Below are positions 8,383-39,629 of a stretch of 64,000 bases of DNA, piece by piece. A program made the position numbers and the translations under genes. Source of the DNA: a bacterium (GTDB lineage Bacteria; AUK180); contig JAGLGN010000006.1 of NCBI GenBank assembly GCA_023144005.1, positions 1,841 through 65,840 on the forward strand, written 5' to 3'. Under the pieces are notes generated by a model. It saw only the letters and a list, made by a program, of their open reading frames with translations, ran no database searches and was not told where the DNA came from. The number at the start of each line of letters is the position of its first letter. Positions within the stretch are counted from its first letter, which is position 1.

Positions 8383-8957
8383 GTGTAGTGTTTCATAATT
8401 AGCTTGATAATGGAATGCTTAGATTTAAGTCAATTCCGACGTACAATGAGCGCGGTGTACCCTTTGTGGTACATAAGCGAAGAGAAAGGAATAAATTGAC
8501 CAAAGATGGGATTCCCTTCGGGCTGAAGCTCTTTTTCCGTCTTCTGCGTTGCTAGTGCTCTTTTTCATAAATACGATGGCAATGGAATGTTTCGATTTGA
8601 GTCAATTCCAACGAACAATAAGCGCGGCGTACCCTTTGTGGTCCGTAAGCGGAGAGAGAGGAAGAAATTGACCAAAGATGATATTCCCTTCGGGCTGAGG
8701 CTCTTTTTCTGTCTTCTGTGTTGCTCGTCGCTTACATACCGCTGTGGGTATGCGACGATCCTCGCTCTTAGAATCCAGAACAAAATAGCATCAGCCATTG
8801 TTACCGTATTTATGAATCAGAGCACTCATTGCTTACATACCGCAGTGGGTATGCGGCGTTCCTCACGCCTCGAATACGGAATAAAATTGCATCAGCCATT
8901 GTCCAGCCAATTATAAAACACTTCACTATAGTGTAGTGTTTTGTGATTCAGAGCACT
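8383..8957. repeat. Composite pile-up of three tandem or partial copies of the ~270 bp MITE-like element (family A): truncated copy ~8383-8560, full copy ~8553-8826, partial copy ~8827-8957
   Basis: Three successive 'aatggaatg(c/t)ttagatttgagtcaattcc...' and 'cttacataccgc..gggtatgc' modules. TIR-like 'agtgctctttttcataaatacg' and 'cgtatttatgaatcagagcact' flank the middle copy. Confidence 0.8.
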
Positions 8958-8969
8958 AAGCGGGGCTTT

Positions 8970-10199
8970 ATGAAAAGATCAATATTGCTACTTTGCCTGT
9001 TTTCATTGCTTATCGTCTTTGCTGATAATAAAATTCCGGCAGCATTTATCGACCTGCAAGAAGGAAATGCCGTGAATAAAGGATTGGTACTTACCATCTC
9101 CGATTATTTCCGTACTCAATTGGTCAATAGGGGGAAGTACCTGATAGTTTCACGCGAAAGTATGGAAGATATCTTGAAGGAACAGCAGTATCAGATATCC
9201 GGATGTACCAGTCAGGAATGCCTCGTACAAATGGGTAAGGTTCTCGGAGTAAGGAGTATGTTCGTGGGAACCCTTGGCAAGGTCGGTTCGATCTTTCTTC
9301 TCAATATCAAGCTCATCAGCGTTGAGACCGGAGAGATCATCGAGGCCACATCGGCGGAAGCGGCTTCCGAAGAAGCGCTTTTGGAAAAGATCAGGCATAT
9401 GGCGGATGAGCTCAGCGGCATTGAGACCGCGCCTGCATTCATGACCTCTCCGATCACTGCTGCACCGAAGAAGGCCACAACGGGCGATGTGCCCAAGTTC
9501 AAGGGACACAACTTCCTGATATTCACATACGGCATCGGCGGCGGCTCGATGAGGTTGAATTTCAGCAATACCAATGACGAGATACTTAAATCGCATCTTG
9601 GGATAACCGGGACTTTTTCCGACCCCTTTGATAATATTGAATGGCGGCATTTGAAAGCTGATATCTCACTCCCGCTTTCTCTGAAGATCGGCGGTGTTTT
9701 CGCCTTTGAAGGGAAAAAGGGATATCCCGGCCTTACCGTAGAGATCTTCTATCAGAATATGGATATCATCGCCCAGGAAACTGCCGTTTATGTTAACGGC
9801 TACGATGTGGGAACCACCGTATTTGTCTATGACAGTTATTTCTCCATAGGAATGCTTGCGGTGGATGTTCAGATCGTATATTATTATGAAATGGCAAAAG
9901 CCGTATCAATTTACGGCGGAGCTGGCTTCGGAATGACAATGAATATGTGGCGATCCGATCATATACTCGGTTATACAACGGGAAGCGGATCATTTGAATC
10001 TCCTGTATCCGGGTATTCCACGGGATTAATGGTGCATCTCCCATTGGGAATAATGGCAGAGATCGGACAATTTAAATTAATGGTGGAATGGGGATTCTGG
10101 GCAACTCTCTTCACATTCACACGAAATGTGGAAGATGAAGAGGATACAGCCGACATCCTGGTCCCGCTGCTGAAATTCGGAGTGGGAGCGAAATTCTGA
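8970..10199 (+). CDS. Outer-membrane protein: signal peptide, CsgG/TolB-N-like periplasmic domain, C-terminal beta-barrel (ends ...GVGAKF)
   Basis: MKRSILLLCLFSLLIVFA signal. An ...RESMEDILKEQQYQISGCTSQEC...GKVLGV... motif typical of CsgG-like N-domains. Alternating hydrophobic C-terminal half ending in Phe. The longest ORF (8943, GTG) starts inside the MITE TIR. Confidence 0.5.
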   Translation: MKRSILLLCLFSLLIVFADNKIPAAFIDLQEGNAVNKGLVLTISDYFRTQLVNRGKYLIVSRESMEDILKEQQYQISGCTSQECLVQMGKVLGVRSMFVGTLGKVGSIFLLNIKLISVETGEIIEATSAEAASEEALLEKIRHMADELSGIETAPAFMTSPITAAPKKATTGDVPKFKGHNFLIFTYGIGGGSMRLNFSNTNDEILKSHLGITGTFSDPFDNIEWRHLKADISLPLSLKIGGVFAFEGKKGYPGLTVEIFYQNMDIIAQETAVYVNGYDVGTTVFVYDSYFSIGMLAVDVQIVYYYEMAKAVSIYGGAGFGMTMNMWRSDHILGYTTGSGSFESPVSGYSTGLMVHLPLGIMAEIGQFKLMVEWGFWATLFTFTRNVEDEEDTADILVPLLKFGVGAKF

Positions 10200-10230
10200 G
10201 AGACCGGAGAATTTAGGTATATAATAAGCA

Positions 10231-11082
10231 ATGAACATCAAAGACTCGGACATCACGATCAGATTTGCAGATGTTTCCGACAGATCGGGAATTGAAGAGA
10301 TCTCGTCAAAGACGTGGGATGGTGACGATTATCTCGCTGCTGCATTTGAGGAATTCCTCAAAGACGGTTATTTTTATGTCCTTATGTACAAAAATAAGGT
10401 CGCCGGTTGTGCGAAGATGACTCTTTTTCCGGAACACATTCTTTGGCTGGAGGCATTGCGAATTCATCCTGACTTTCAAGGCAGGGGATTCGGCCGCGAT
10501 CTATATAATTTCTGTACTGAGATCGGAATAGCCATGATACGTGATGGAAAGATCAGCGCGATGGAGTTCTCAACCTATTACACGAATTACGGCTCGATCG
10601 CAATGGGCGAAAAGGGCGGGTTCAGCGTGATCGAAAAGCTCTTCGTCCTCACCTATGAGCTTAAGGCAAATGAGGAATTCACGGAGCCGAAGCCAATGAG
10701 ACCTGAATATTCCCAATATTCCAAATGCCGTGGACACATCCCCATCGGCTGGCATTTTGTCAAGAACTCAGAAGCTTCAATGCAATATATTGTCGATAAT
10801 ACCAAAGGATATGAGACGGACGGGATTTACTTCCATCTGGCACAGCCGTATAATTCATGTTATTGCCCTGAGCTTGATGTCAATAATTTCAAAATATTCC
10901 AAAAGGCGCTTAACTTCGTTTTCAAAGGTGAGGGCCATTATGAGATAATGGTGGAGGACAGCAAGGCAGCCCTTGTTCCCCATTTACTGAAAGCGGGTTT
11001 TCAATTCTGGGAAGAGCCGAAAGAACCAAATGTCATCATCTACGGACACAGCGGCAAGAGTGAGCAGAAAAATAGAGGTTAG
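10231..11082 (+). CDS. GNAT family N-acetyltransferase with an extra C-terminal domain of unknown function
   Basis: Acetyl-CoA binding motif region ...LRIHPDFQGRGFGRDLYNF... in the N-terminal ~150 aa. Confidence 0.55.
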   Translation: MNIKDSDITIRFADVSDRSGIEEISSKTWDGDDYLAAAFEEFLKDGYFYVLMYKNKVAGCAKMTLFPEHILWLEALRIHPDFQGRGFGRDLYNFCTEIGIAMIRDGKISAMEFSTYYTNYGSIAMGEKGGFSVIEKLFVLTYELKANEEFTEPKPMRPEYSQYSKCRGHIPIGWHFVKNSEASMQYIVDNTKGYETDGIYFHLAQPYNSCYCPELDVNNFKIFQKALNFVFKGEGHYEIMVEDSKAALVPHLLKAGFQFWEEPKEPNVIIYGHSGKSEQKNRG

Positions 11083-11109
11083 AGGCTCGAGGTTAGTGCA
11101 GAAAAGAAA

Positions 11110-11250
11110 TAAAATCCGTCTCTCTCATTCTTTATCCCTCATCCTTCATTTCCCCGCTTGTCACTTGTGCTCTTGTTGCTTGTGCCCTGCGAAGCGTGTT
11201 CCACTGGGTCCACTTGTTCCTGGGTCCACTGCGAAGCTTAACTTATAAAC
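11110..11250. repeat. Interspersed repeat family B, partial copy (module with 'gttccactgggtccact...cctgggtccactgcgaagc')
   Basis: Near-identical to 37260-37336 and 39830-39900, with short direct GGGTCCACT-type subrepeats. Confidence 0.65.
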
Positions 11251-11284
11251 AATCTTTGCTACATCACACGAGAATGCTTCGCGT

Positions 11285-11971
11285 TCACATATAGATCAAA
11301 TAGACTGCCATTATACCGATATCGGCAAGGAAATGGCTGATGACAGGTGCGTAAATAGATCGATAATGTAATCTCATATGGCCAAAAAAGATCCCTGAAA
11401 GAAAGATCGAAGCGGAAAAAAGGACAGCGGAAGTCGAGGCGAATAATATGCTTGTGGTTACAATGTGATGAAGTGTAAAAAGGCCACTGGAAAACAAAAG
11501 AGCTCTTCGGGGCCCAAAGAAATACCTCAATCCGCCAAGGACATATCCCCTCCAGAAGAATTCTTCCACAGTAGCGTTGGCAATAGTCATGAATACCAGG
11601 AATAATACAATATTCGAATCCGTTACTCCCCATTTGGATGTAAGCTCCAGTATCCCTTCCATATCCAATACGCTGCTTCCGAAGATCCTGAAGAAGATGA
11701 AGATAACGGCGAACATTGCCGCTCCCGTAACAAGGCCGGGAAGGAGGGCCCTTTTAAAATTGTGAAGAGCAATGATTCGGGAAAATGAAAAGTCGAAACC
11801 CCTTGGGAAAATATGAAAAAAAGGCACAAGCAGACATAGGAAGATATGATATCCGATAAAAGTTATCCAGACATTTCCGATATATTTCAAAGAAAAATAG
11901 ATCCAGAAAGAAGCGGAAAGCGCGGATAATATGATTACGAACAGGTCTTTGGGAGGACTTTTTCTACTCAA
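11285..11971 (-). CDS. CPBP family intramembrane glutamic endopeptidase (CAAX protease / Abi-like)
   Basis: Conserved EEFFWRG (EExxxR) and FxxxH / HxxxD-like motifs (LFTLHHIV, HFLADI) within a multi-TM protein. Confidence 0.7.
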   Translation of the reverse strand: MSRKSPPKDLFVIILSALSASFWIYFSLKYIGNVWITFIGYHIFLCLLVPFFHIFPRGFDFSFSRIIALHNFKRALLPGLVTGAAMFAVIFIFFRIFGSSVLDMEGILELTSKWGVTDSNIVLFLVFMTIANATVEEFFWRGYVLGGLRYFFGPRRALLFSSGLFTLHHIVTTSILFASTSAVLFSASIFLSGIFFGHMRLHYRSIYAPVISHFLADIGIMAVYLIYM

Positions 11972-12111
11972 TCCAAAATTCCATTCCCGCCAAACGATGA
12001 CATCAACAACTCCTCTATTTTTAGTTTAAAGGAGTTTCAATATTTTGTCAAATCCATGCTTCTTGACAAATACCCACTTTATAGTAAAATATACCGATGG
12101 AAAAAGGGGCC

Positions 12112-12257
12112 AGTGATCTGATTCAGAAATACGACAACAATGGAATGTTTAGATTTGAGTCAATTCCAACGAACAATGAGTGCGGCGTTCCTCGCTCCTT
12201 TCATGCTGAACAAAATAGCATCAGCCATTATCAGGGTATTTATGAATCAGAACACTA
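12112..12257. repeat. Internally deleted (~146 bp) copy of MITE family A that keeps both terminal inverted repeats
   Basis: 'agtgatctgattcagaaatacg' ... 'aatggaatgtttagatttgagtcaattccaacgaacaatgag' joins directly to 'tgcggcgttcctcgc...aaaatagcatcagccatt...ggtatttatgaatcagaacact'. The ~120 bp middle present in full copies is missing. Confidence 0.8.
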
Positions 12258-13102
12258 AGATATTTTATTTTACAGGAACCGGAAACACCGCCATCCTTGC
12301 TGGACTTTTTCAAAAGCAATTCGAAAAAGCGAATATAGCCGCTGAGCTATTTCCGACAGAGGAGATCTTGAACAGCGGGAAGCTCCCATCTTTGAGCAAT
12401 TGCTATATCCTTCTAGGATTCCCCGTGCATGCCTTCAATGCGCCGCCCAATGTATTTGACTTTGTTCACCGCCTTCCCCCGGGAATGGGGAAGAAGATCA
12501 TCCTCTTCAAGAATGCCGGGGACCCTATGAAGAACGGAGCTTTCACATGGGTGAAGAAAGTATTGAGAAAAAAAGGATATATCATCTCCTATGAGGCGTC
12601 TTTTGTTATGCCGTCAAATACATTTTTGAAATACCCGCCCGGATTATCTTATGACCTCTATCTTACAGCGAAACTAAGAATAGCAAGTATGGTCAAAGAA
12701 ATAATTGACGGAAAATGTGCTCATGTGAAAAGCAGTTTTGTTATTGATATCCTCGCAAAGCTCTTTATTACATTTAAAGGAAAAGGCACGAAGTATTTCG
12801 GCAGAAAAATAGAGCTAAGCAAGAGTAAATGCTTAAAATGCGGACAATGCGCGGCATCTTGCCCTGTAAATAATATCATACAAAATATGGACGGGTATCC
12901 GGTCTGGGGAACAAAGTGCGCCCTCTGTATGAGATGTATGTATATCTGCAAACAGGACGCCATCAGGCCGGGATATTTAAAATTCTTTAGGATCGCTTCG
13001 GGGTATAATGCGATTGATATGATGACCCCAAGTATTGATGCCTTACCATATAAAAGCCGATTAATAGAACGCATACACAGACATACCGTTAAATATCTTT
13101 GA
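12242..13102 (+). CDS. EFR1-family ferredoxin: flavodoxin-like domain plus 2x[4Fe-4S] ferredoxin domain
   Basis: KIFYFTGTGNTA flavodoxin-type motif, and CLKCGQCAASCP plus CALCMRCMYICKQDAIRP cluster motifs. The start codon ATGAATCAGAACACTAAG (MNQNTK) is the outward TIR of the upstream MITE. Confidence 0.65.
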   Translation: MNQNTKIFYFTGTGNTAILAGLFQKQFEKANIAAELFPTEEILNSGKLPSLSNCYILLGFPVHAFNAPPNVFDFVHRLPPGMGKKIILFKNAGDPMKNGAFTWVKKVLRKKGYIISYEASFVMPSNTFLKYPPGLSYDLYLTAKLRIASMVKEIIDGKCAHVKSSFVIDILAKLFITFKGKGTKYFGRKIELSKSKCLKCGQCAASCPVNNIIQNMDGYPVWGTKCALCMRCMYICKQDAIRPGYLKFFRIASGYNAIDMMTPSIDALPYKSRLIERIHRHTVKYL

Positions 13103-13119
13103 CTGAAACTAATCGTAAA

Positions 13120-14049
13120 TTAAACATCCTCTAATTCATAGGTGTAGGAGCCTTTCTGAGATCCGCGCTCCGATAAGATATATTGACCGCAATTCGAACC
13201 GATCTTATTTTCTTCATTCTCTCCGATACTGTGTATCACCTCAAAACCTGTATCTGTAAATTCTTCTGCGAGCCGCTTCTGAAATACCGCGTCAGATGAA
13301 TCCAATCCGTGTTTTACCGCGGAATATGTAGGATTGACCGGAGTGATCTTGATGATGAATTTCTCATTGTCGAAGATATCGGCAAGATGGCGCACGTCAA
13401 CACTGATCTTCTCGGATGCCGCGAAATTCAAGGTGATCTTTCTTTCGCCCCGGGAGAAAAACTTGTTTCCATAATCCGCGATCTGCTGCAGATCCCATTT
13501 GTCTATCGGCATCATATGGTCTCTTTGCGTTTTATCCGTTGAATGAATTGAAAATTGTAATTGAAAATTCTTTCCGTACAGGGTGTTTTTTATCGCGATC
13601 AAGTCCTCGAAAAAACTTTCCGTTCCCAGAGGAGCAATAGAAGATACAGAAGGCATCAGCGCTCCTTTGTATTCATAGCGGTGCGGAAGCTCCCGCAGAA
13701 CATCCAGCACGGCAGAGTTAAGCGACGGTTCTCCCATTCTCGCAAATTGTACCTTCAGCCGCTTCGTCTCTACGATACCTTTGGCATTGGCGGAATACAC
13801 CATATGGTCACATTGAAAAAGGATATCGTCGGAAGTCATCTTGCCATGGTAAGCGCCGCCCGCATCGCAGAATAGACACCCGGAAGGACAACCGAAGAGA
13901 GTGGAAAGTATCATCACCCATTTCTCTGTTTTTGATAATGGGGGCTGTATGGATTCCACGAATTCCACCTTCTTGCCGTCAATATCAGCTATATATACGG
14001 TCGCGATCTCACTTTTTTTCGTTCTTTTAATTACTTGGCGCATGTCCAA
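13120..14049 (-). CDS. Radical SAM protein of the RlmN/Cfr family, short form: lacks the N-terminal domain and the Cys equivalent to RlmN C118 but keeps the CGQ cysteine
   Basis: CPSGCLFCDAGG (Cx3Cx2C), MGEPSLN, FSIHSTDKTQRDHMMPIDK, IKITPVNP and SNCGQY blocks align with RlmN motifs (MGMGEPLLN, SLHAPNDEIRDEIVPINKK, NLIPWNPF, ACGQL). Confidence 0.5.
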   Translation of the reverse strand: MDMRQVIKRTKKSEIATVYIADIDGKKVEFVESIQPPLSKTEKWVMILSTLFGCPSGCLFCDAGGAYHGKMTSDDILFQCDHMVYSANAKGIVETKRLKVQFARMGEPSLNSAVLDVLRELPHRYEYKGALMPSVSSIAPLGTESFFEDLIAIKNTLYGKNFQLQFSIHSTDKTQRDHMMPIDKWDLQQIADYGNKFFSRGERKITLNFAASEKISVDVRHLADIFDNEKFIIKITPVNPTYSAVKHGLDSSDAVFQKRLAEEFTDTGFEVIHSIGENEENKIGSNCGQYILSERGSQKGSYTYELEDV

Positions 14050-14884
14050 TATCTCTCAGTAATTTCATTGCGGTTCTAAGGCCGTCACCGGCCGCGATAC
14101 CCGCCTGCCTGAAAAGGCCGTTCACTATATCGCCGCAAAAATATATCCCGCTTTGCTTAATATCAGGTCTATATAATGGGGAGGGTTTTCTGCCGCATGC
14201 CAATAGGATGTGATCAAAATCCATGGCAAAATTATCGTCACCCTTCACACGCAGACATATCTTGCCGTGATCACAGAGCGAGATGCCGGCAATTTCGATC
14301 CCTATGTGTATGTCAATATTCTCACACCTTACTACTTCGTTCTGAAGAAGCGGCAGGGCAGTGGAAATAGAACGCTGAACGATATGTACTTCATTTCCCC
14401 TTTCTTCAAGGGTCAAGGCTTGATCATAAGCCGCGTCACTGCCCCCGATAATACAAATGCGCTGGGCGGTCAGCAGCATCTCGCTTACATTATAATGAAT
14501 GTGTGTGTCGGGAAGGTCCTTGAGGCCCTGGATGTTCGGGATTACCGGAACCGTGCCCGCGGCAATAATAACATTACTGCTCACATATTCCTCTGATATA
14601 CTTTTTAGTATCCACTCGCCCTCATGCTTGGAAAGATCAATGATATCGTCCTTAACAAAGGGAATGCGCATCTCATCGAACGCCTCTACCAACCGTCCTG
14701 CGACCTCCTCTCCTTTGAGAGGCGGCATACCGGGGAAATTCTCGACATTCCAGCCATTGGATATCAATCCTCCCGGCAGGGCTTTCTCCACAACCAACAC
14801 TTCCAATCCGCTGCGTTTTAATTGAACAGCAGCGGAAAGGCCCGCGGGACCTGCGCCAACGACCACTATCTGAGTGAAGATCAT
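14027..14884 (-). CDS. FAD/NAD(P)-binding oxidoreductase, thioredoxin-reductase-like but with no redox-active CxxC
   Basis: N-terminal VVVGAGPAGLSAA Rossmann motif, a second dinucleotide fold (ICIIGGSDAAYDQA) and an FCGDIV C-terminal motif. Overlaps the radical SAM gene by 23 nt and the isochorismatase gene by 4 nt. Confidence 0.55.
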   Translation of the reverse strand: MIFTQIVVVGAGPAGLSAAVQLKRSGLEVLVVEKALPGGLISNGWNVENFPGMPPLKGEEVAGRLVEAFDEMRIPFVKDDIIDLSKHEGEWILKSISEEYVSSNVIIAAGTVPVIPNIQGLKDLPDTHIHYNVSEMLLTAQRICIIGGSDAAYDQALTLEERGNEVHIVQRSISTALPLLQNEVVRCENIDIHIGIEIAGISLCDHGKICLRVKGDDNFAMDFDHILLACGRKPSPLYRPDIKQSGIYFCGDIVNGLFRQAGIAAGDGLRTAMKLLRDIGHAPSN

Positions 14885-15540
14885 AGGAGCTCCTTTGAAA
14901 GAGGTGTTAAACCGAAGGCGAATGAGGCATTTTTCAAGGTGTTCTCATGTAATTTTCTCGTATATGCCGCTGTGGTATCTATCGGAATAACGGGAAGAAT
15001 ATCCCGTACAAATGCTGAACGCGCAGACTGCTCCACGCAGAGGTTCGTCATTACTCCGCAGATCACCAACTGAGTGACATCACCTGCTCTCAATATTTTC
15101 TCCAGATCTGTATTATAGAACGGGTCGTAAGTGCTCTTGTGTATAATGTGCATTAATGGGATATCTGCCTTGCTGATCTCAGATATTTCAGATATGAAAG
15201 CAGAGGAAGCATCATCCATCTTTCTTCGCCACCATTTCCCCATATTGATGCCGCTGTCTTCAATGTGTTTTGTAAGAATGATCGGAAGCGAATGCTCGTT
15301 ATAATATTTAATAAGATCCTTTACCTTAGAAATAATTGATGGGGCGGAAGGGATAAAGGCATGGGATTCGGGTGAAAAAAAATATTCCTGCATATCCACA
15401 ATGAGCAGAGCGGAACTATCCATTTGCAATAATGCGGACCTGTCTGGAGAATGCGCAAGAATAGTGTTTTTTATCTCTAATGAAACCTTGTCAATGATAG
15501 ATGATGTGAAATACAATTCCCTCTTAGTGTTCTGATTCAT
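14881..15540 (-). CDS. Isochorismatase-family cysteine hydrolase
   Basis: ALLIVDMQEYF and LVICGVMTNLCVEQSARSA (catalytic Cys region). The N-terminus MNQNTK is encoded by the TIR of the MITE at 15526-15798. Confidence 0.65.
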   Translation of the reverse strand: MNQNTKRELYFTSSIIDKVSLEIKNTILAHSPDRSALLQMDSSALLIVDMQEYFFSPESHAFIPSAPSIISKVKDLIKYYNEHSLPIILTKHIEDSGINMGKWWRRKMDDASSAFISEISEISKADIPLMHIIHKSTYDPFYNTDLEKILRAGDVTQLVICGVMTNLCVEQSARSAFVRDILPVIPIDTTAAYTRKLHENTLKNASFAFGLTPLSKELL

Positions 15541-15798
15541 AAATATGGTGACAATGGAATGTTTAGATTTGAGTCAATTTCAACAAACAATGAGGGCGGT
15601 GTACCCTTGGTGGTACATAAGCGAAGAGAGAGGAAGAAATTTACCAAAGATGATATTCCCTTCGGACTGATGTTCTTTTTCTGTCTTCTTCGTTGCTCGT
15701 TACTTACATACCGCAGTGGGTATGCTGCGCTCCTCGCGCCTTGAATACGAAGCAAAATAGCATCAGCCATTGTTCCCATATTTATGATTCAGATCACT
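15526..15798. repeat. MITE family A, full-length copy
   Basis: TIRs 'agtgttctgattcataaata' (left) and 'tatttatgattcagatcact' (right), with internal conserved hairpins (tcccTTCGgga; cataccgcagtgggtatg). Confidence 0.85.
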
Positions 15799-15825
15799 TG
15801 TAAATCCCATCATCTCACTATGATG

Positions 15826-15847
15826 AAAAAGGCCAGCGGCCTAAGCC
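15826..15847 (-). terminator. Weak intrinsic terminator candidate downstream of apgM (AGGCC-gct-GGCCT + T5)
   Basis: Minus strand reads ...TAGgccgctggccTTTTTc; the stem is short. Confidence 0.25.
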
Positions 15848-17046
15848 CCGTATTTTGCCAATTTCCCGGAATGGGCAAGAAGCAGGGGGATCTCATATAA
15901 TGCGTTTATTCTTGACAATGAACCGTTTCGGCAATTTTTCTCTGTAAACGGCATATCGTCCGTTCTCGCAAATTCCGAATGCAGCAGAAGCGGGACGGGA
16001 TGCCAGGAGTGGGCCTTCATCATACATGGGGTCGAATGATCCCCTGTAATGAGCAAGGCATCCGGGTTAAGAGCCAGTATCCTGGGAAGTATCTTGTCGA
16101 ATTCTTCGATAACATGGACTTTCCCGTCATAATTTCCGTCTTCTCCGTAAGAATCGGTCTTCTTAATGTGAAGAAAGTAATAATCATGATCAGAAGCCCA
16201 GTTGCGCTCCAAGGCCGCTGGAATATCTTCCATCTTCTCTCCGACATTCAAAAGGGTCATGCCAACCAAGCTGGCAAGACCTCTGTACATCGGGTACTGC
16301 GCGACGGCGGCGGGACGGAGCGAAAAGCGCTTCTCCATATTGTCAAGACCGGGGTCCTTGGCGAAACCTCTCAAGAGTATTCCGTTTACCTCGTCACCCT
16401 TTAGTATCTCCAGGACATGGTCTATGAACTTATTGACTTTTTCTGTGGTTTTTATAGCTGTATCGGTATCCGCTTCGGCATATTTGTAAGGCAAGCCGTC
16501 CTTTTGCGCATCAGCATCCAGGATATTCGGGACAAGTTCCTCTCCGAGAAATTCCACGACAAAACGGTGTTCCTTCACAGGGTATACTTTGGCTGGGACC
16601 TCTTTAAAATTTTTCAAGCCCGCATTTATCTTTTCACAGACGGTCCGGTTGATATCGGTAGAGATCCTTCCTGCGCGACGGTCAAGAATAACATTGTTCT
16701 TATCCAGGGTACAGAAATTTCCCCTTGCGTACATCCCATTGTCTCTCAATTTAAGATCAATTCCCAATGCTTCCAGAACGCCTCTGCCGATATTGAACTT
16801 CAAAGGGTCATAGCCGAAAAGGGACAAATGCCCCGGGCCGCTGCCCGGAGTAATACCGGGAAAGATCGGGTCGGCTAAGCCCAAAGAGGACGCTCTTGCG
16901 AGTTTATCCAGGTTCGGTGTCTGAGCTTTCTCCAGCGGTGAAGGTGTATTGTTATTATAAATATCCCCTACGCCATCTAATATGATCTGAATGATCCGGC
17001 TATCCGTGGTGGACGCCAACTTTTCAATAACAGAAATATCGTGCAT
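15841..17046 (-). CDS. apgM: 2,3-bisphosphoglycerate-independent phosphoglycerate mutase, archaeal-type (ApgM family)
   Basis: ~400 aa, N-terminal ILDGVGD...TPNLD, metalloenzyme-superfamily features. Confidence 0.7.
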   Translation of the reverse strand: MHDISVIEKLASTTDSRIIQIILDGVGDIYNNNTPSPLEKAQTPNLDKLARASSLGLADPIFPGITPGSGPGHLSLFGYDPLKFNIGRGVLEALGIDLKLRDNGMYARGNFCTLDKNNVILDRRAGRISTDINRTVCEKINAGLKNFKEVPAKVYPVKEHRFVVEFLGEELVPNILDADAQKDGLPYKYAEADTDTAIKTTEKVNKFIDHVLEILKGDEVNGILLRGFAKDPGLDNMEKRFSLRPAAVAQYPMYRGLASLVGMTLLNVGEKMEDIPAALERNWASDHDYYFLHIKKTDSYGEDGNYDGKVHVIEEFDKILPRILALNPDALLITGDHSTPCMMKAHSWHPVPLLLHSEFARTDDMPFTEKNCRNGSLSRINALYEIPLLLAHSGKLAKYGA

Positions 17047-17052
17047 TTGAAC

Positions 17053-17778: not shown

Positions 17779-17783
17779 CTTAA

Positions 17784-18761: not shown

Positions 18762-18776
18762 AATATTGTTCCCCTA

Positions 18777-19433: not shown

Positions 19434-19443
19434 ATTGTACTCC

Positions 19444-29126: not shown

Positions 29127-29135
29127 AATTACCTC

Positions 29136-29483: not shown

Positions 29484-29487
29484 CTCC

Positions 29488-29766: not shown

Positions 29767-29775
29767 ATGATTCCC

Positions 29776-30606: not shown

Positions 30607-30616
30607 ATCTGTTCTC

Positions 30617-30907: not shown

Positions 30908-31530
30908 AGTTCCATCCTTTTATCCAGATCAGTGATGGCATCCTTGGTAAAGACGATCTTGTCAAAATAGAGAAGATCGAAAACATTGAGATAATTCTGT
31001 GAAACCCATTTGGTATTCTCAAGATTTCTGATGGAAAGATCCAGATTCGTATCCGGAAGCTCTACAACAAAAAGAGATTTTGCGGGAAGATTCAATGATT
31101 TTTTCAGTCCTGCCATCTCTTTTGTCTTGGGTTTATCCAAAACAAGTTTATCCAATATTATGAAGTCTTCAAATCTTGATGTGAGCGCGGAGATCAAAGC
31201 TTTGCGTCTGATCTTCTTGTTCAATTTGATAGAAAAATCTCTCTGTTTCTTGCCAAAAGCAACACCGCCGCCGGTTCTAATATTTGTCCTTTTGCGGCCC
31301 ATTCTGGCATTACCGGTACCTTTCTGTCTGAAGATCTTCTTATTGGAGCCCTTCACCATAGCACGGCTTTTCGTGACCGCGGTGCCCGCCCGCCTTGCAT
31401 TCATATATGCTCTTACGGCAAGCTGCATCAATGTGTCACTTATTTCGCCCTTGAAGATCTCATCCTTTACCTTGATCTTGTCTATTTCCTGGCCTTCTCT
31501 GTTGATTACTTTGATTTCAGCCATGATCAC
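30904..31530 (-). CDS. rplD: 50S ribosomal protein L4
   Basis: 208 aa, ...RQKGTGNARMGRKR... Confidence 0.9.
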   Translation of the reverse strand: MIMAEIKVINREGQEIDKIKVKDEIFKGEISDTLMQLAVRAYMNARRAGTAVTKSRAMVKGSNKKIFRQKGTGNARMGRKRTNIRTGGGVAFGKKQRDFSIKLNKKIRRKALISALTSRFEDFIILDKLVLDKPKTKEMAGLKKSLNLPAKSLFVVELPDTNLDLSIRNLENTKWVSQNYLNVFDLLYFDKIVFTKDAITDLDKRMEL

Positions 31531-32204
31531 ACCTCAATATTCTGAAGATATACAACGCCGTTGATAGCCCCGGGAACTCCGCCCTTGACTAAAACAACGT
31601 TCTTTTCAGGAATTACATCAATTATCGGTATCTTTTTCAAGGTAACCTTCTGCACACCCATATGGCCGGGCATCTTCTTTCCCTTCAGGATCCTGGAAGG
31701 GGAAGCACACATTCCAACAGAACCGGGAGCTCGATGAAAATGTGAGCCGTGGCTTGCGGGGCCGCCGGCGAAATTGTATCTCTTCATGACACCCTGAAAA
31801 CCTCTTCCTTTGGAGGTTCCGACTATCGTGACCACATCATTCACCTTCAATGCTTCTACATCGACCTGGTCTCCGGGAGCGTATTTCTCAGGATCCGTGA
31901 CCCTGAATTCTTTCAATACGCTGAAAGTGAAAAGTTTATCGGTATTTCTTTTTTTGATCTCCTTTTCAATATCTTCCCTGGGCATTCCGAAGGCCTTCAT
32001 AATATGAACAAGCACCGGTTTTGTTCCTCTGAACCATTTATTTCTCACCGAACCCATCTGAACGGCATCATAGCCGTGCGTTTCACGTTTCTTTATCTCG
32101 ATAACGTAGTTAGGTTCGATCTTGATTACGGTAACGGGAATACTGACACCATCTCTGAAGACCTGTGTCATTCCCACTTTTTTTCCGATCAGTCCGACTT
32201 TCAT
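31527..32204 (-). CDS. rplC: 50S ribosomal protein L3
   Basis: MKVGLIGKKVGMTQVF... Confidence 0.9.
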   Translation of the reverse strand: MKVGLIGKKVGMTQVFRDGVSIPVTVIKIEPNYVIEIKKRETHGYDAVQMGSVRNKWFRGTKPVLVHIMKAFGMPREDIEKEIKKRNTDKLFTFSVLKEFRVTDPEKYAPGDQVDVEALKVNDVVTIVGTSKGRGFQGVMKRYNFAGGPASHGSHFHRAPGSVGMCASPSRILKGKKMPGHMGVQKVTLKKIPIIDVIPEKNVVLVKGGVPGAINGVVYLQNIEV

Positions 32205-32217
32205 TTGTAACTACTCC

Positions 32218-32532
32218 TCACTTTGTTAACTTGATCTTGACCTCTACGCCGGCAGGCAGTACAAGTTTATTCAGGACCTCAACGGTCTTAGGACTGTATT
32301 CCACTATATCGATAAGTCTTTTATGTATCCTTATCTCAAATTGTTCTCTGGATTTTTTATCAATGAAGGGTGAGCGGAGAACCGTGTACCTTGAAACCCT
32401 TGTAGGCAGTGGTATCGGTCCGGCCATTTTCCCTTCACTTCTCTTCAGTTCCTTTATGATCTGTTGTGCGGTCTTATCAAGTATTCTATAATCGTATGCA
32501 CTTAAATATATTCTTACTCTATCCAATGTCAA
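32218..32532 (-). CDS. rpsJ: 30S ribosomal protein S10
   Basis: ...RVRIYLSAYDYRILDKTAQQIIK... Confidence 0.9.
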   Translation of the reverse strand: MTLDRVRIYLSAYDYRILDKTAQQIIKELKRSEGKMAGPIPLPTRVSRYTVLRSPFIDKKSREQFEIRIHKRLIDIVEYSPKTVEVLNKLVLPAGVEVKIKLTK

Positions 32533-32537
32533 CTCCT

Positions 32538-33731
32538 TTATTCGTGGATCTTGCCAACAACGCCGGCACCAACGGTCCTGCCGCCTTCACGAACGGCGAA
32601 ACGCTGACCTATCTCCATTCCGATAGGTTTGATCAACTCGACCATAATGGTGAGGTTGTCACCGGGCTTGACGATCTGAACATTCTCAGGAAGCGTGATC
32701 GATCCCGTAACATCTGTGGTTCTGAAAAAGAATTGAGGACGATATCCCGTAACAAACGGTTTATGGCGTCCGCCTTCCTTTGCGGTCAGAACATAGATAT
32801 TCGCGTCGAACTTCGTGTGAGGGGTGATGCTCTTGGGCTTGGCCAAAACCTGGCCGCGCTCTACATCAACCTTGTTTACGCCTCTTAACAATACTCCGAC
32901 ATTCTCGCCGGCACGGCCTTCGTCAAGAAGCTTTCTGAACATCTCAACACCGGTCGCGACAGTCTTCCTCGTCTCGCGGAGGCCGACTATCTCAACATCC
33001 TCTCCGACCTTGATAACGCCTCTCTCAACACGGCCGGTTACAACCGTACCTCTTCCCGTGATAGAGAAAACATCTTCGATCGGCATAAGGAAAGGTTTAT
33101 CCAATGGCCTCTCAGGATCAGGTATGGAGTTATCCATAGCGTCTAATAGTTCCTGAATACATTTATAAGCGTCTGAATCAGCATCATCAGATTCGCCGGC
33201 TTTCAAAGCGCTGCCCTGTATAACAGGAACATCGTCGCCGGGAAATTCATACTGGTTCAGAAGATCTCTTACATCCATCTCTGACAGCTCGATCATCTCA
33301 GGATCATCGACCATGTCGACCTTGTTCAGGAAAACGACAATGTAGGGTACATTGACCTGACGGGCCAGCAAAATGTGCTCTCTCGTCTGGGGCATGGGGC
33401 CGTCCGCTGCTGAAACAACAACGACAGCACCGTCCATCTGAGCGGCACCGGTGATCATATTCTTGATATAATCAGCATGTCCGGGACAGTCAACATGAGC
33501 ATAATGACGCTTCTCTGTCGAATACTCAACATGAGCTGTATTGATCGTAATTCCCCTTGCTTTCTCTTCCGGGGCCTTATCGATCGCATCAAACGGCGTA
33601 TAATCCGCCATCCCCTTGAGATGCAGATATTTAGTGATCGCCGCAGTTAACGTGGTCTTTCCATGATCAACGTGGCCTATTGTGCCGACATTGACATGTG
33701 GTTTAATTCGTTCAAATTTTTCCTTAGCCAT
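32538..33731 (-). CDS. tuf: Elongation factor Tu
   Basis: [18 protein letters not shown] and NKVD GTPase motifs; 397 aa. Confidence 0.95.
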
Positions 33732-33754
33732 AAGTTCCTCCTAATTTAAATTTT

Positions 33755-35827
33755 CTAGAAAGAGTATCCCTGTAAAAGCTCTTTCTGTTCACCCGGCGGC
33801 AGCGGCCTGAATTCCATGAATTCAAGATTAATATTGCCGCGTCCCTGGGTAAGGGAGCGAAGTTCCGTAGTGTATTTAAACATCTTGCTCAGCGGTATTG
33901 CGCCCTTAATGATCTTCAATGCTCCCTTGGGGATAACATCCCTCACTGTAGCACCCTTGGAGTTGATGGAGTTGAATACATCTCCAAAATACTCCTCGGG
34001 GGCGTAGAGCTCGAATTTCATATAGGGTTCAAGCATAACGGGCTTCCCTCTTTGCAGCCCGTTCATGACACCGTTGGATAACGCCATCTTGTACAGGGTT
34101 ACATTCAGGTTCTCACTTCCAGTCACCAGTTCTCTGATGATGAGTTTGACTCCCATTAATGGATAACCGCTTAATACACCTACGGATAACAGGTTCTCGG
34201 CAGCCTCTTGGAGTTCTCTTACAAAAGTCCTGTGAAATTTATCATTGAGCTTTTTCAATGACATCTCCACACGATTCTTATCGTTGTCTTCCAGTGGCTC
34301 GAGATCAATAATGATCTCGGCACTTCCCATTTCATTGGCAACCTTCCCTCTGATGCCGTAAACGGCTTCAGAAATAGATTCCCGGAATGAAACCCTGGGT
34401 TTGCCCGATTTCACATCGATCTTTGCTTCTCTAAACAGACGGTCTAGAATGATCTCCAAATGCAATTCTCCCATACCGTAAATGATCAATTGCCCTGTCT
34501 CCTCACTTTCCCTGAAGGCAAATGAGGGGTCTTCGAACTTATAATCCTCAAGGATACTGATCAATTTGTCGTAGTCCTTATTGGATCGAGGTTCAATGGC
34601 AAGTGATATAACGGGTTTCGGGACTTCAATAACATCCAGCACCAATGGGAAGTCGGGGGTAGATAAGGTATCTGCCGTTTTAGAGAACTTCAAGCCGGCA
34701 ATGCCGACGAAATTCCCCGCAAAGGCTTCTTCTATCTCCTTTTTCGAATTGGCGTGCATCTGGAAGATCTTAAGGACCTTCTCCTTTTTCCTGCTCACGT
34801 CGTTAAAGATAACCTGTCCGCGTTTCAAAGAGCCTGAATAGATCCTCACGAAGGACAATTTGTCCAAAAAAGGATCCTTCATAATTTTGAACACATAGCC
34901 TAAAAAACTATTATGTTCCAGGGGGTTAATGTTAACCCTTTCATTGTTCCTGGGATCGACACCATTCAATGATGCAATATCCGCAGGGGAAGGCAGAAAG
35001 TCTACTATCCCGTCAAGGAGCGGGAGGATTCCCACATTCTTCAATGCAGAACCGGTCAGTACCGGAATTAGCTTCCGGCTCAAAACCAGGTCTCTGAAGG
35101 TTGCTTTGAAGTCATCCTGGGAAATTTCTTCGCCTTCAAGGTACAGAGCCAGTAGATCCTCATTATTTTCAACCACGCTTTCAATGAGTATCTTTCGCCT
35201 GGATTCTACCTCATCCTTGATATCATCCGGAAGTTCGGAAGTGGCGGTCAATTCGCCCCCTTCGTCTTCCCGGTGTAACAAATTTCTTGTAAAAAGATCA
35301 ATGACCCCGTAAAGTTTCTCATCCCTATAATAAGGAATGTTGACGGCCACGGGATCTACAGAAAACTTTTTTCTGATGTCGTCAATGGCAAATACATAAT
35401 CCGCTCCGGCTCGGTCAAGTTTGTTAATACAGACCAGCCTCGGAACATTGAACTTATCGGCTTGGTGCCAGACGGTTTCGGATTGGGGCTGTACTCCCGC
35501 AACTCCATCAAATATAACGACCAGGCCGTCAAGTACCCTAATGGCCTTCTCCACCTCAAGTGTGAAGTCCACATGGCCGGGAGTATCAATAATGTTTATC
35601 TGATGCTCCTTATAATAGGTCGTGGTGACCGCGGATTGTATCGTTATTCCGCGCTCTCTCTCCTGGTCCATCCAGTCCATCTGGGTGGTGCCGTAGTCCA
35701 CTTCCCCTATCTTATGGGTTTTGCCAGTAAAAAAAAGAACTCGTTCGGTGGTAGTGGTCTTACCCGCGTCTATATGGGCTATGAAGCCTATATTCCTAAT
35801 TGCCGGACCGGATAACTCTCCTACCAT
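33755..35827 (-). CDS. fusA: Elongation factor G
   Basis: AHIDAGKTTTTE, DTPGHVDF and NKLD; 690 aa. Confidence 0.95.
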   Translation of the reverse strand: MVGELSGPAIRNIGFIAHIDAGKTTTTERVLFFTGKTHKIGEVDYGTTQMDWMDQERERGITIQSAVTTTYYKEHQINIIDTPGHVDFTLEVEKAIRVLDGLVVIFDGVAGVQPQSETVWHQADKFNVPRLVCINKLDRAGADYVFAIDDIRKKFSVDPVAVNIPYYRDEKLYGVIDLFTRNLLHREDEGGELTATSELPDDIKDEVESRRKILIESVVENNEDLLALYLEGEEISQDDFKATFRDLVLSRKLIPVLTGSALKNVGILPLLDGIVDFLPSPADIASLNGVDPRNNERVNINPLEHNSFLGYVFKIMKDPFLDKLSFVRIYSGSLKRGQVIFNDVSRKKEKVLKIFQMHANSKKEIEEAFAGNFVGIAGLKFSKTADTLSTPDFPLVLDVIEVPKPVISLAIEPRSNKDYDKLISILEDYKFEDPSFAFRESEETGQLIIYGMGELHLEIILDRLFREAKIDVKSGKPRVSFRESISEAVYGIRGKVANEMGSAEIIIDLEPLEDNDKNRVEMSLKKLNDKFHRTFVRELQEAAENLLSVGVLSGYPLMGVKLIIRELVTGSENLNVTLYKMALSNGVMNGLQRGKPVMLEPYMKFELYAPEEYFGDVFNSINSKGATVRDVIPKGALKIIKGAIPLSKMFKYTTELRSLTQGRGNINLEFMEFRPLPPGEQKELLQGYSF

Positions 35828-35835
35828 TTTTCATA

Positions 35836-36309
35836 TTACCAATTATAATGCGCAAATGCCTTATTGGCTTCTGCCATTCTATGTGTATCATCTTTCTTCT
35901 TTACAGTGGCGCCTTTATTGTCCAGAATATCCAGGAATTCACCTGTGAGCTTCTCGGTCATGGTGTGCCCTGAGCGTTTTCTTGAAAAGGAAATGATCCA
36001 TCTCATCGCCAATGCTGTTGAGCGTTTCTTGTTGACCTCGATAGGTATTTGATAATTGGTACCACCAAGCCTTCTGGATTTAACTTCCACATGGGGCCTG
36101 ATCTTCTCTATAATCGTTTCAAATATCTCCAAGGCACTTTTCCCCGTTTTCTTCTCCAAAGCTTCCAGTGTTCCGTACACGATCTTGGTGGCGGTACTTT
36201 TCTTACCGTCCATCATTATCATATTGATAAATCTGGCCAAAAGCCTCGAATTGTACTTGAAATCAGGGTTAAGTCCGTATTTAAGTTTCTTAAAAGGTTT
36301 CCTTGACAT
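35836..36309 (-). CDS. rpsG: 30S ribosomal protein S7
   Basis: ...[15 protein letters not shown]... Confidence 0.9.
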
Positions 36310-36311
36310 AA

Positions 36312-36695
36312 TTACACCTTGCTTTTCTTGGGCTTTTTGGCCCCGTATTTTGATCTTCCCCGTCTGCGTTCTTCGACACCAGCAGCGTCATATTTTCCGC
36401 GGATGATATGATATCTTACTCCGGGAAGATCTTTCACTCTACCACCCCTGATAAGGACAACATGATGCTCTTGGAGTTCATGGCCTTCGCCGGGAATATA
36501 TGCAGTTACTTCAATACCGTTCGTTAATCTTACCCTTGCGACCTTTCTCAGTGCTGAGTTAGGTTTCTTAGGGGTTCTTGTCGACACCCTCAGGCAGAAT
36601 CCTCTTTTCTGAGGTGAGTTCTGCAATGCCGGTGACTTCGACTTTTTCTTCGACTTTTTCCTGCCATTTCTGAGCAGTTGGTTTATAGTAGGCAT
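36312..36695 (-). CDS. rpsL: 30S ribosomal protein S12
   Basis: [14 protein letters not shown]...[19 protein letters not shown]... Confidence 0.95.
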
Positions 36696-37146
36696 TGTTC
36701 CTCCTCTTTTTGCAATTTATCGTTCAAACAGCCTATTTATTTTTCTACGCAACAAAAAAGATATTTTACCAGTTTTATTTTGAAAGTCAAGTATTTATGG
36801 GAGATTAATGAATAAATAATTGGCTTAAAATGGTGCCGTCGGGATATATTACTTCCTATCTATATACACATTGGGCATATTCTCGCTTATTAATTATTAT
36901 TTACCAATATCCGCATCCGTAGCCGAAAAGCCAATATTCGTTCAAGTAGCGAATGTCGTACCTTAAGGGAGGGATTCCCCGCTTTCGCGGGAATGAAGAG
37001 AAGAAGGCAGAATTGCAGAAAACAGATGTGAAGAATGTTCCGTTTAATTCTAAACATTGCGTAGAGTGTACAATTGCTACGCAATTTTCAACTCTCCGCT
37101 TGGTACTTTTACATCGGGACAGTCGAACGCCTGCGGCGTACGGCAT

Positions 37147-37336
37147 GTCCCCTATCTTGGTTGGGGTACGGCGTGATATGATTGTATCAGTAGAATGAAT
37201 GGTTTAAGCGAAATATTGATTTTCCGTTACGGATGTGTTTCTTTTCCATTTCCCCACTTGTGCCTTGTGCTCTTCTCCCTGTTCCACTGGGCTACTGGGT
37301 CACTGGGTTACTGGGAAGCGCGTACCCGCTTCGCTA
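37147..37336. repeat. Interspersed repeat family B, full copy: modules 'gtcccctatcttgg ttggggtacggcgtga...', 'cgaaatattgattttccgttacggatg' and the 'gttccactgggctactgggtcactgggttactggg' microrepeat
   Basis: High similarity to 43191-43400 in the first two modules and to 39712-39900 and 11110-11250 in the last two. Confidence 0.7.
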
Positions 37337-37636
37337 TCCCCAATTGATATCAAATTCAGTTATATCATCTCCTTTGGTAAGAGACTTGGTGACCTTGACA
37401 GAAAGGTCTTTGACCCCGGTCATCATCATGGCGGTATGTATCCATCCGTGGATTCCGGGTTCTATATATTTGTTCATATCCTGAAAATCGATGATCTGTA
37501 CCTTGGCGGAGTTCTTTTTCAGCTCTACTGTCTGCATCGCGGAAGGTTTATAATAGGATGGGAAAATAACGCTTGCTTTTTTGATGATGAAGGAAGGGCT
37601 TCCCATTTTCACAAAGATCTTGTAAATACCTGTCAA
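37334..37636 (-). CDS. Hypothetical protein, ~100 aa; the frame continues upstream into the MITE TIR where the MITE ATG is mutated to ATA
   Basis: ORF MTGIYKIFVKMGSPSF... (TTG start in the ORF track). Upstream in frame is ...VFINQNTLGIFSAEFA from 'ttataaatcagaacact'. Confidence 0.35.
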   Translation of the reverse strand: MTGIYKIFVKMGSPSFIIKKASVIFPSYYKPSAMQTVELKKNSAKVQIIDFQDMNKYIEPGIHGWIHTAMMMTGVKDLSVKVTKSLTKGDDITEFDINWG

Positions 37637-37663
37637 AGCGAATTCGGCGCTGAAGATGCCTAA

Positions 37664-37946
37664 AGTGTTCTGATTTATAAATACGATGACAATGGAATGT
37701 TTAGATTTGAGTCAATTCCAACGAACAATGAGCACGGCGTACCCTTAGTGGTACGCAAGCGAAGAGAGAGGAAGAAATTGACCAAAGATAAGATTCCCTT
37801 CGGACTGATGCTCTTTTTCTGTCTTCGGCGTTCCTCGTCCCTTACATACCGCTGCGGGTATGCAGCGCTCCTCGCGCCTTGAATACGGAATAAAATAGCA
37901 TCAGCCATTGTTGCCGTCTTTATGAATCAGATCACTATCATAGGTC
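37664..37946. repeat. MITE family A, full-length copy
   Basis: TIRs 'agtgttctgatttataaatacg' and 'tctttatgaatcagatcact'. Confidence 0.85.
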
Positions 37947-38209
37947 ACTTGCATATCTCCATTACAAAGCTTCTCTACGATGGCCTTTGTGGGTATAGTA
38001 ACGGCATCTTCCATAGAATACCACGCTCCCACGAAGGGGTTCTCCAGGATCTCTCTTGATCTTTCAGGCAGAGAGGCATACCATTCATCATATTTATTCG
38101 GATAATGTTTCTTGACATATTCCCTTAAGGGAAGAACCGCCGCGCCTTTTACTTCCATATATTTTACTCCTCTATTTGGGGACGGTGGTTGCAAAAGTTG
38201 CAAGTCCAT
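37901..38209 (-). CDS. Hypothetical small protein; the C-terminal codons and stop lie inside the MITE, and the N-terminal codons lie inside the 24 bp inverted repeat (probable true start MEVKG at ~38158)
   Basis: ORF MDLQLLQPPSPNRGVKYMEVKGAAVLPLREYVKKHYPNKYDEWY... Confidence 0.35.
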   Translation of the reverse strand: MDLQLLQPPSPNRGVKYMEVKGAAVLPLREYVKKHYPNKYDEWYASLPERSREILENPFVGAWYSMEDAVTIPTKAIVEKLCNGDMQVTYDSDLIHKDGNNG

Positions 38210-38407
38210 CCCTGCTCCTCTTGTATTGCACCTTTATTAGTATATTTATAACCTTATCGAACCTCGCTTTGAGGCATTGCTTCATGTATCTCATATCGGT
38301 CTTGCATCATGCTTATTGCAATAAGTATTCAGCCCAGTATAATAGGAGTTACCCAGCCTCCTGCTAGGGAAATATTCACTTCCTGCAACTTTTGCAACCA
38401 CCGTCCC
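38179..38407. repeat. ~230 bp element bounded by perfect 24 bp inverted repeats 'gggacggtggttgcaaaagttgca'
   Basis: Left copy 38179-38202; right copy (reverse complement) 38384-38407; ~180 bp AT-rich spacer containing 'cagtataatagg'. Confidence 0.8.
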
Positions 38408-38420
38408 TATTTTTTATTTT

Positions 38421-39068
38421 TTAAAGAATATTCAGTCCTATTCCTAATGCGACCATCAGATTGATATATCTGGAAGACATTCCTTCCACCGTTGCCGTGG
38501 TCTCCAGATCCGAGAGTCCCATCGCAAAGCGGCCATCCAATGACATGCGGACATTGAAAAGATAAAAATCGAACCCCAGACCGAATACTAATGAAAAATT
38601 TACATTCGCGGCCTGATCCTTGATATCTTCCCATGCGCCGTCCAATGTAAGTTTTTCTGCCTTCGTCAATATTGAAAATGATGGGCCTATTAGAAAGTAC
38701 GGTTTAATTATAGGCATATTCAACCGAAGCTTTAGAAGCACAGGTATCTCGATATAATCACTGACCCTCTCCTTGTAATTGAAGGTGGTTTCCGCCACTT
38801 CAGACAGTTGAGAGATATTATGCAGATAGTATATTTCGGTCTGAATTGAGACTACCTTGAAAAGGTTGATGGAGCCGTATATTCCGAAGTTGAATCCGGC
38901 GGACGGATCAAAATTCTCATTAAGGGAAGCCTCGGTGGAGTCATCTGTAGCGGTGATCTGCACATCGGCAAAACTTGTGCCGAATTTCAAGCCCAGATCA
39001 AGCAGGTCAGCTTGCAGAAATGCAGCCGAGAACATAAGCATCAATGTAAGGACAATTATCTTTTTCAT
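38421..39068 (-). CDS. Outer-membrane beta-barrel protein (OmpA-like / porin-family small barrel) with signal peptide
   Basis: MKKIIVLTLMLMFSAAFLQA signal, alternating amphipathic strands, C-terminal ...VALGIGLNIL. Confidence 0.55.
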   Translation of the reverse strand: MKKIIVLTLMLMFSAAFLQADLLDLGLKFGTSFADVQITATDDSTEASLNENFDPSAGFNFGIYGSINLFKVVSIQTEIYYLHNISQLSEVAETTFNYKERVSDYIEIPVLLKLRLNMPIIKPYFLIGPSFSILTKAEKLTLDGAWEDIKDQAANVNFSLVFGLGFDFYLFNVRMSLDGRFAMGLSDLETTATVEGMSSRYINLMVALGIGLNIL

Positions 39069-39357
39069 ATTGCCTCCTTCGTATGATATATTTTAAACAC
39101 AATCAGAATATAAATCAACCCTTCAGCGGCAGCATTTATCTGAATTTGTATGATAACATACCATAATAGCAGAAGGAGATGTGTGAAGTCTGAAGTGTGA
39201 AGTGAAAAATAGGTGATAAGGTAATAAGTTTGTAGGTAGAGAACGATGGATTATCGGGTCAAGCCCGATAATGACAGAGGAGAGAGGAAATAACATTAAT
39301 AGATGTGTGGAGAATATTTACATATGATTCTACGCCCATTCTCCCTCCACCCGCCCA

Positions 39358-39629
39358 GGTGATCTGAGTCATAAATAAGATGGCAATGGAATGTTTAGAT
39401 TTGAGGTAATTCCAACGAACAATGAGCGCAGCGTACCCTTTGTGGTCCGCAAGCGAAAAGAGAGGAAGAAATTGACCAAAGATTAGATTCCCTTCGGGCC
39501 GAAGCTCTTTTCTGTCTTCTGTGTTGCTCGTTACTTACATACCGCCTTGGGTATGCAGTGTTCCTCGCGCCTTGAATCCGTAACAAAATAGCTTCAGCCA
39601 TTGCTATCGTATTTATGACTCAGAACACT
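39358..39629. repeat. MITE family A, full-length copy with compensatory TIR variant (tgagtca...tgactca)
   Basis: TIRs 'ggtgatctgagtcataaataag' and 'tatttatgactcagaacact'. Confidence 0.85.

Follow-up and report, generated by a model that had tools for sequence, protein, structure and literature searches.

What is the repeat of about 271 bp that recurs in a 64,000-nucleotide stretch of bacterial DNA (contig JAGLGN010000006.1, positions 1,841 to 65,840; hereafter the window), and how did its copies come to be there? The repeat, denoted family A, had been read in a preliminary description as a miniature inverted-repeat transposable element (MITE) that depends on a transposase. This reading is supported by a match of its terminal inverted repeats (TIRs) to the ends of IS630-family elements, by flanks enriched in TA and by the presence of TA at paralogous empty sites, and family A is very likely a non-autonomous transposon of the IS630/Tc1-mariner superfamily. 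Annotation benefits from placing in this superfamily a repeat that is abundant in an uncultured cold-seep lineage; neither a new kind of mobile element nor a new RNA is revealed.

The anatomy of the copies was established by a search of the window for direct repeats, by direct reading and by alignment of the copies, with the element ends set as GTG...CAC. The search returned a direct-repeat family of ~273 nt at 8382/8554, 15526 and 37664, to which two sub-families of 153 nt and 122 nt add the copies at 12113 and 39359. Family A is a non-coding element of ~271 bp, represented in the window by four full copies, one split copy, one internally deleted copy and one end-only remnant. All window copies are in + orientation, and their identity to the reference (84–90%) is far beyond chance.

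8383–8552, + strand: left-hand segment of the outer family-A copy, into which the 8555 copy is inserted; TIR diverged at unchanged length (GTGTAGTGTTTCATAATTAGCTTGATAATGG)
8553–8554, no strand: TA adjoining the left end of the inner copy; the right counterpart at 8826–8827 is TC
8555–8825, + strand: inner full-length family-A copy, inserted in the outer copy at element position ~174
8828–8926, + strand: right part of the outer family-A copy, ending in ...AAAACACTTCAC and followed by TA
8931–8956, + strand: end-only remnant of 26 bp (GTGTAGTGTTTTGTGATTCAGAGCAC), flanked by TA on either side, in which the left and right TIR tips are fused
12113–12255, + strand: internally deleted family-A copy with element positions 1–80 and 198–273 and without ~81–197
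15527–15797, + strand: full-length family-A copy between an apgM-type phosphoglycerate mutase gene and an isochorismatase gene
37665–37935, + strand: full-length family-A copy ~1 kb upstream of the rpsL (ribosomal protein S12) operon
39359–39628, + strand: full-length family-A copy, both arms of which have the GAGTCAT variant of the TIR, inside repeat B (...CCCTCCACCC / ATTCTCCAGGGACGGAGGTGG...)

The repeat family is present at the places where it had first been noticed, with the earlier coordinates off by 1–10 nt. The region 8383–8957, formerly taken for three nested copies, does contain nested copies, but only two; the adjacent 26-bp remnant is not a third.

The terminal inverted repeats are genuine and extend over ~20–32 nt (GTGNTCTGAKTCATAAATACGATGACAATGG). 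Their outer limits, given previously as AGTG...CACT, have to be moved inwards by one nucleotide on each side: since the IS630 elements described below end in TA-GTG...CAC-TA, the true ends of family A are GTG...CAC, and the outer A and T each belong to a flanking TA, of which they form the inner half. These IS630 elements come from a scan of metagenomes with the terminal repeat GTGNTCTGANTCATAAATA as the pattern. The scan returned 99 loci, very roughly half of which would be expected by chance, given the pattern length and a loosely estimated collection size. Family A itself is absent from all 99. In at least 13 of them an IS630-family transposase gene adjoins the match. Loci L078 and L164 harbor 1132-bp elements bounded by the terminal repeat, whose two open reading frames match the N and C halves of NF033545 (transpos_IS630) as well as Pfam HTH_32 and PF13358 (DDE_3), and L175 harbors an element of 1180 bp with a transposase of 363 amino acids. 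The ends TA-GTG...CAC-TA of the IS630 elements often lie within CTAG, and TA precedes the terminal-repeat match in 11 of the 13 transposase-linked loci and in 28 of the 99 overall.

The family-A TIR matches the ends of the elements with NF033545/PF13358 transposases over 19–27 nt. The match to a RefSeq-annotated IS630-family element on a Streptomyces plasmid, which ends in TA followed by GTGACCTGAGTC, covers the first ~12 nt. Up to 27 nt of the family-A TIR are also found in other MITEs of 102–162 bp from unrelated metagenomes, and MITEs seem to have arisen on repeated occasions from IS630 ends of this type. A nearly identical terminal repeat (TA followed by GTGCTCTGATTCATAAATACGGTGAC...) is carried by small MITEs at L148 (6442–6660), L129, L136, L118 (1–160), L138 (2346–2507), L115 and L106 (1517–1618). 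As to the autonomous partner, for which the preliminary description could offer no candidate, the family can now be given as IS630/Tc1-mariner, while the cognate transposase was not found in ~0.5 Mb of host DNA.

The flanks of the copies point in the same direction. In host copies with unique flanks, TA stands directly before GTG in 24 of the 49 left and 23 of the 43 right ends, i.e. in ~50% against a TA background of 5.8%; the base at -1 is A in 77% and that at -2 is T in 57% of the host family-A ends. At the self-insertion at 8553–8827 (TA ... TC) the outer copy exceeds the consensus by 2 bp, as a 2-bp duplication predicts. A paralogous hairpin repeat without insert in L053 (...AGAGTGTACAATTGC...) reads AGAGT-G-TA-CAATTGC, with TA at the insertion point, and its filled counterpart reads AGAGTT-TA-[A]-TC-GTATTGC, where [A] denotes the element, and is 2 bp longer than the empty form. 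For repeat B, the empty form in L059 is CCCTCCC-TA-ATTCTCC and the filled form is CCC-AG-[A]-T-ATTCTCC. Flanks and empty sites fit a targeting of TA with 2-bp duplication, the duplicates being often degenerate. Insertion at TA with duplication of the TA has been shown in vitro for ISY100, a member of the IS630 family (PMC2170065).

Several observations weigh against an IS630-type MITE. TA is present at both ends in just 6–7 of 31 full copies and about half of the ends are intact, a retention below that predicted by the mean conservation of ~89% in the internal columns. The duplicate at the self-insertion and at the L053-type site reads TA/TC, even though both are 2 bp longer than the empty form, and the junction at the B site (AG ... 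T) lacks a clean 2-bp duplication. A clean pair of filled and empty states at one genomic position was not found, both differences between strains being deletions. A tblastn search of the window and 76 host loci (~0.5 Mb) with three IS630 queries gave no IS630 transposase, with nothing better than E = 0.17. Finally, with its 271 bp and its very conserved left module (positions 28–68) family A is larger than the classic bacterial MITEs.

For an IS630/Tc1-mariner MITE, the following course of events is envisaged. An IS630-family DDE transposase, supplied in trans, would bind and cleave at the family-A TIRs, excise the element and paste it into a TA dinucleotide, whereby the TA would be duplicated, and the imperfect palindromic body would let either strand fold into a long rod. 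In the present cold-seep lineage, family A is abundant but looks old and inactive, with copies at the same positions in relatives, TAs that are half decayed and a palindrome eroded by deletions.

The body of family A is an imperfect palindrome, and the whole element folds as one long rod with -102 kcal/mol (z = -8.7 versus shuffles). The left module (positions 28–68; AATGGAATGTTTAGATTTGAGTCAATTCCAACGA) is almost invariant. Two small REP-like hairpins are located in inverted orientation at positions ~72–95 and ~181–199. The hairpin noticed previously, with a kept stem and a varying loop, is CATACC-GCNNNG-GGTATG and holds across 32 copies. The UUCG hairpin proposed alongside it corresponds to a conserved TTCG motif, but its stem comprises merely 2–3 bp and is not used by the consensus fold.

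Such a fold raises the question whether family A is instead a repeated structured non-coding RNA, either small or cis-regulatory, in which the rod and the hairpins are functional and the terminal repeats constitute the closing stem. Besides the very stable fold and the near-invariance of the left module, this reading is favored by the + strand, whose fold is the more stable one in 30 of 33 copies, with a mean advantage of 9.7 kcal/mol over the - strand, by the far greater tolerance of G:U than of A:C pairs, and by compensatory (double-sided) changes in 12 cells compared to 4.5 ± 1.8 in shuffled controls. However, all double-sided changes but one fall in the TIR helices, several of them being single events inherited by orthologous copies, and C/T and A/G variant columns are equally frequent. 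There is no match to Rfam 15 at the gathering score or, with the limit relaxed to E ≤ 10, near it, the best element matches (E = 2.8–7.4) remaining far below; no promoter-like site is found inside the element and terminator-like matches are weak. Relative to the neighboring genes the copies are oriented at random (10 co-directional, 10 antisense, 5 divergent and 2 convergent), and the ends are already accounted for by the IS630 TIR match and the TA flanks. A structured RNA, the alternative offered by the preliminary description, is thus unsupported with regard to Rfam, orientation and covariation, and must be considered decidedly improbable.

The same hairpin could also be taken for an element moved as single-stranded DNA by an HUH (Y1) transposase, in the manner of REPINs/RAYTs or of PATEs derived from IS200/IS605, which would not give rise to a target duplication and in which the ability to form hairpins would be under selection. 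The folding of the whole element into one long hairpin, the two small inverted REP-like hairpins, the compensatory changes between the arms, the recurrence of insertions beside hairpins and at one spot within family A, and the single orientation common to all window copies are in line with this mode of transposition. Among 55 scored copies from loci of related metagenome-assembled genomes (MAGs), however, orientation is unrelated to GC skew (17:16 in positive-skew and 12:10 in negative-skew loci), and consequently the shared orientation in the window is attributed to chance. In addition, once the ends are set at GTG...CAC, the self-insertion is seen to add 2 bp and the flanks to be enriched in TA, and the ends match those of IS630 elements, which are of the DDE type. 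A single-stranded DNA route is accordingly held to be highly improbable. An HUH, IS110 or REPIN-like element had also been considered on account of a missing target duplication, as seen with AGTG...CACT as the ends; this candidate was rejected in view of the IS630 ends and the absence of a GC-skew bias.

A variant of the favored assignment is a domesticated MITE, of which the host uses the long rod or the near-invariant left module as an element of RNA processing or stability or as a protein-binding site. Domestication would explain why the interior (89% mean column identity) is kept better than the flanking TA (57–77%), why the + strand folds systematically better, and why copies persist at the same positions in relatives though no transposase is in sight. 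It is nevertheless regarded as unlikely.

Open frames of 60–87 codons exist on both strands in most family-A copies, e.g. at window 8587–8916 (+). Protein-coding function was rejected, as substitutions are not periodic by codon (minor-allele cells at the three codon positions: 80/70/95 and 145/187/140) and a change in the length of a T-run shifts the frame. Open frames have been noted in some other bacterial MITEs as well (PMC2229807).

The 39359 copy carries matching changes in both terminal repeats (TGAGTCAT...ATGACTCA), which had been put forward as an argument for selection on the TIRs. The changes are real, but they are not by themselves proof of selection by a transposase. An exchange of one common IS630 TIR variant for another (GATTCAT, GAGTCAT) would fit them too; as both are common IS630 ends, both family-A ends may track one transposase. 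A correction between the arms of the quasi-palindrome fits equally, template switching between such arms being able to transfer a change from one arm to the other. Strongly diverged ends are found in the outer copy (8383–8413 and 8896–8926); they differ from the family consensus at ~10 of 31 positions, ~8 of these being changed on both arms. The arms of this copy still match each other at 26 of 31 positions, the reverse complement of the right arm being GTGAAGTGTTTTATAATTGGCTGGACAATGG, and its interior is ~84% identical to the other copies. Ends that are strongly diverged yet match each other are compatible with either a TIR-variant switch or an arm-to-arm correction.

With respect to the age of the MITE, the statement that no transposase is encoded in the window holds for the IS630 type, the only type checked, for which tblastn gave no match better than E = 0.7. 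A search for a hidden transposase among multi-copy open reading frames in 59 loci yielded only translations of family A itself. Locus L008 of a related MAG is syntenic with window 9.6–17 kb and shows two element-related differences in this stretch, both of which are losses. At the site of the 15527 copy, L008 (~1150–1170) has a 21-nt remnant, AGTGTTCTTATTCAGATCACT, which corresponds to a deletion between the TGATTCA repeats of the two arms. Conversely, a 375-bp stretch of L008 (7068–7452), located between AGACC(C/G) repeats, is absent from the window at ~10205–10217; it holds a variant element of 248 bp with the same ends and left module and with another interior that is rich in CTGAAGTGTGARGTG motifs.

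Deletion between short direct repeats, one in each arm, appears to be the way in which the palindromic family-A elements disappear. The 26-bp remnant at 8931–8956 resembles the 21-nt remnant of L008, the deletion in the 12113 copy is bounded by GCGGCGT direct repeats, and both show the same erosion by slippage; the 12113 copy is found at the same place in L008 (4444–4583). Because the strain differences are only deletions and the TAs are decayed, family A looks old and is probably inactive.

The copy within repeat B has an inverted interior in L052 (3809–4081) and L051 (4811–5084) relative to the window (39359–39628), L011 and L024. In L052 the junction bases are the same on both sides (AG on one side and T on the other), and for L051 this refers to the junction on the ATTCTCC side only. 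The identical junctions of this copy in L052 and in the window, L011 and L024 could be taken to mean that family-A elements are invertible DNA switches (invertons) flipped by a site-specific recombinase. Yet the copies number dozens beside unrelated genes and are nested in one another, no recombinase was noticed beside those copies whose neighbors were examined, and, as mentioned above, the element has no promoter-like site inside. Recombination between the 30-bp TIRs readily accounts for the single flip, and the comparison of the paralogues suggests an inversion by recombination between these ~30-bp terminal repeats. DNA switches are considered extremely improbable. Integron attC sites or gene cassettes were likewise rejected, the copies being scattered among housekeeping genes such as ribosomal protein operons. 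Together with its related loci the window illustrates the decay of palindromic elements by slippage deletions, end-only remnants of 21–26 bp, interior flips and nesting.

The distribution of the MITE family was examined by a core-pattern scan of GTDB r232 with one genome per species. It returned 59 loci, all in two related MAGs, 'bacterium RS_12_30' (JAGLWT01) and 'Ca. Atribacteria' (JAIVYW01), and family A in no genome of this set beyond those two; viral contigs gave 0 matches to the core pattern and to the extended TIR. The two MAGs are close relatives of the window organism, with syntenic stretches ~88–98% identical to the window, and several family-A copies occupy the same positions in them and in the window. 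Exact-protein matches assign the window to a 600-kb scaffold (scaffold_2 of ERZ23498458) from South China Sea cold-seep sediment metagenomes (PMC9357000), and at NCBI the proteins go under 'bacterium' or 'Ca. Calescamantes'. Using blastn, 33 full-length copies with flanks and many partial ones were obtained. The copies are mostly intergenic, with 4 of 53 clusters inside long open reading frames, and nesting is frequent at element position ~170–177.

Logan contigs, which are assemblies of public sequencing runs, break off inside family A, and the element thus accounts for these assembly breaks. Contigs encoding the genes that flank family A came from the same strain only and showed the same insertions, with no empty sites among them.

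The left module (positions 1–67) and the right module (175–273) occur with other interiors as well, namely in L019 (537 bp) and in L008 at 7125–7372 (248 bp). In L019 (2115–2651), L033 (5184–5440) and L053 (5200–5660) the left module is joined to other short modules, e.g. hairpins of the GGATYCYWCGGTCGC...GGATGACA type repeated several times. Such joins lead to longer elements or to elements without a recognizable right end, a mosaic reminiscent of BOX or BIME repeats.

In order to place family A among known systems, it was compared with RUP of Streptococcus pneumoniae, an accepted IS630-dependent MITE of bacteria, which is mobilized by IS630-Spn1 (PMC2229807). Like family A, RUP is non-coding and intergenic, has IS630-like TIRs, inserts at TA, is present in many copies and enters other mobile elements (PMC2229807). 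In this comparison, made by description and not by sequence, RUP differs by its length of 107 bp, its short TIRs of 9 bp and a partner insertion sequence (IS) in the same genome (PMC2229807), whereas family A has 271 bp, TIRs of ~30 bp and a palindromic body, and no partner for it turned up in the ~0.5 Mb of host DNA. The Correia/NEMIS elements of Neisseria share with family A the TA termini, TIRs of ~24 bp, long and short forms distinguished by an internal segment and the lack of a known host transposase, and their transcripts fold into long stem-loops (PMC2229807). With 107–155 bp they are shorter than family A, and they reside in a different host phylum. Promoter, IHF-binding and RNase III-processing functions are documented for Correia elements.

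The IS630-family IS elements (ISY100; L078/L164 and L175) have the TIR core GTGNYCTGAKTCATAAATA and the TA flanks in common with family A, but they are autonomous, 1.1–1.2 kb long and encode HTH + DDE_3 transposases, and beyond the first 20–27 nt no sequence is common to both. REPINs and BOX-type repeats resemble family A in the long hairpin of inverted arms and in the modular make-up. In contrast, REPINs depend on RAYT (HUH) enzymes for their movement and have neither IS630-type TIRs nor TA flanks, while family A shows no replication-strand bias.

The window contains further repeats apart from family A. Intergenic repeats of the families D5, D6 and D7 are found at 37146–37291, 39786–39886, 43190–43276 and 11197–11237, and the B module (...GTGATTCTAYRCCCATTCTCCCTCCACCC / ATTCTCCAGGGACGGAGGTGGTGAA...), into which the 39359 copy is inserted, occupies 39290–39357 and 39630–39700. 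In related MAGs the D5–D7 and B repeats are found again, some holding a family-A insert and others (L010, L030 and L059) empty. An open reading frame of 1106 amino acids (344–3664, - strand) comprises four in-frame repeats of ~62 nt at 666–1018 with a spacing of 96–99 nt (family D4). Rfam has a single match in the window, a tRNA gene at 59540–59611 (- strand, 56 bits), which lies inside the mechanical open reading frames 58810–59586 and 59523–60458. A stretch of 596 bp in L008 (4696–5292), absent near window position ~12005, is unlike family A and may be coding.

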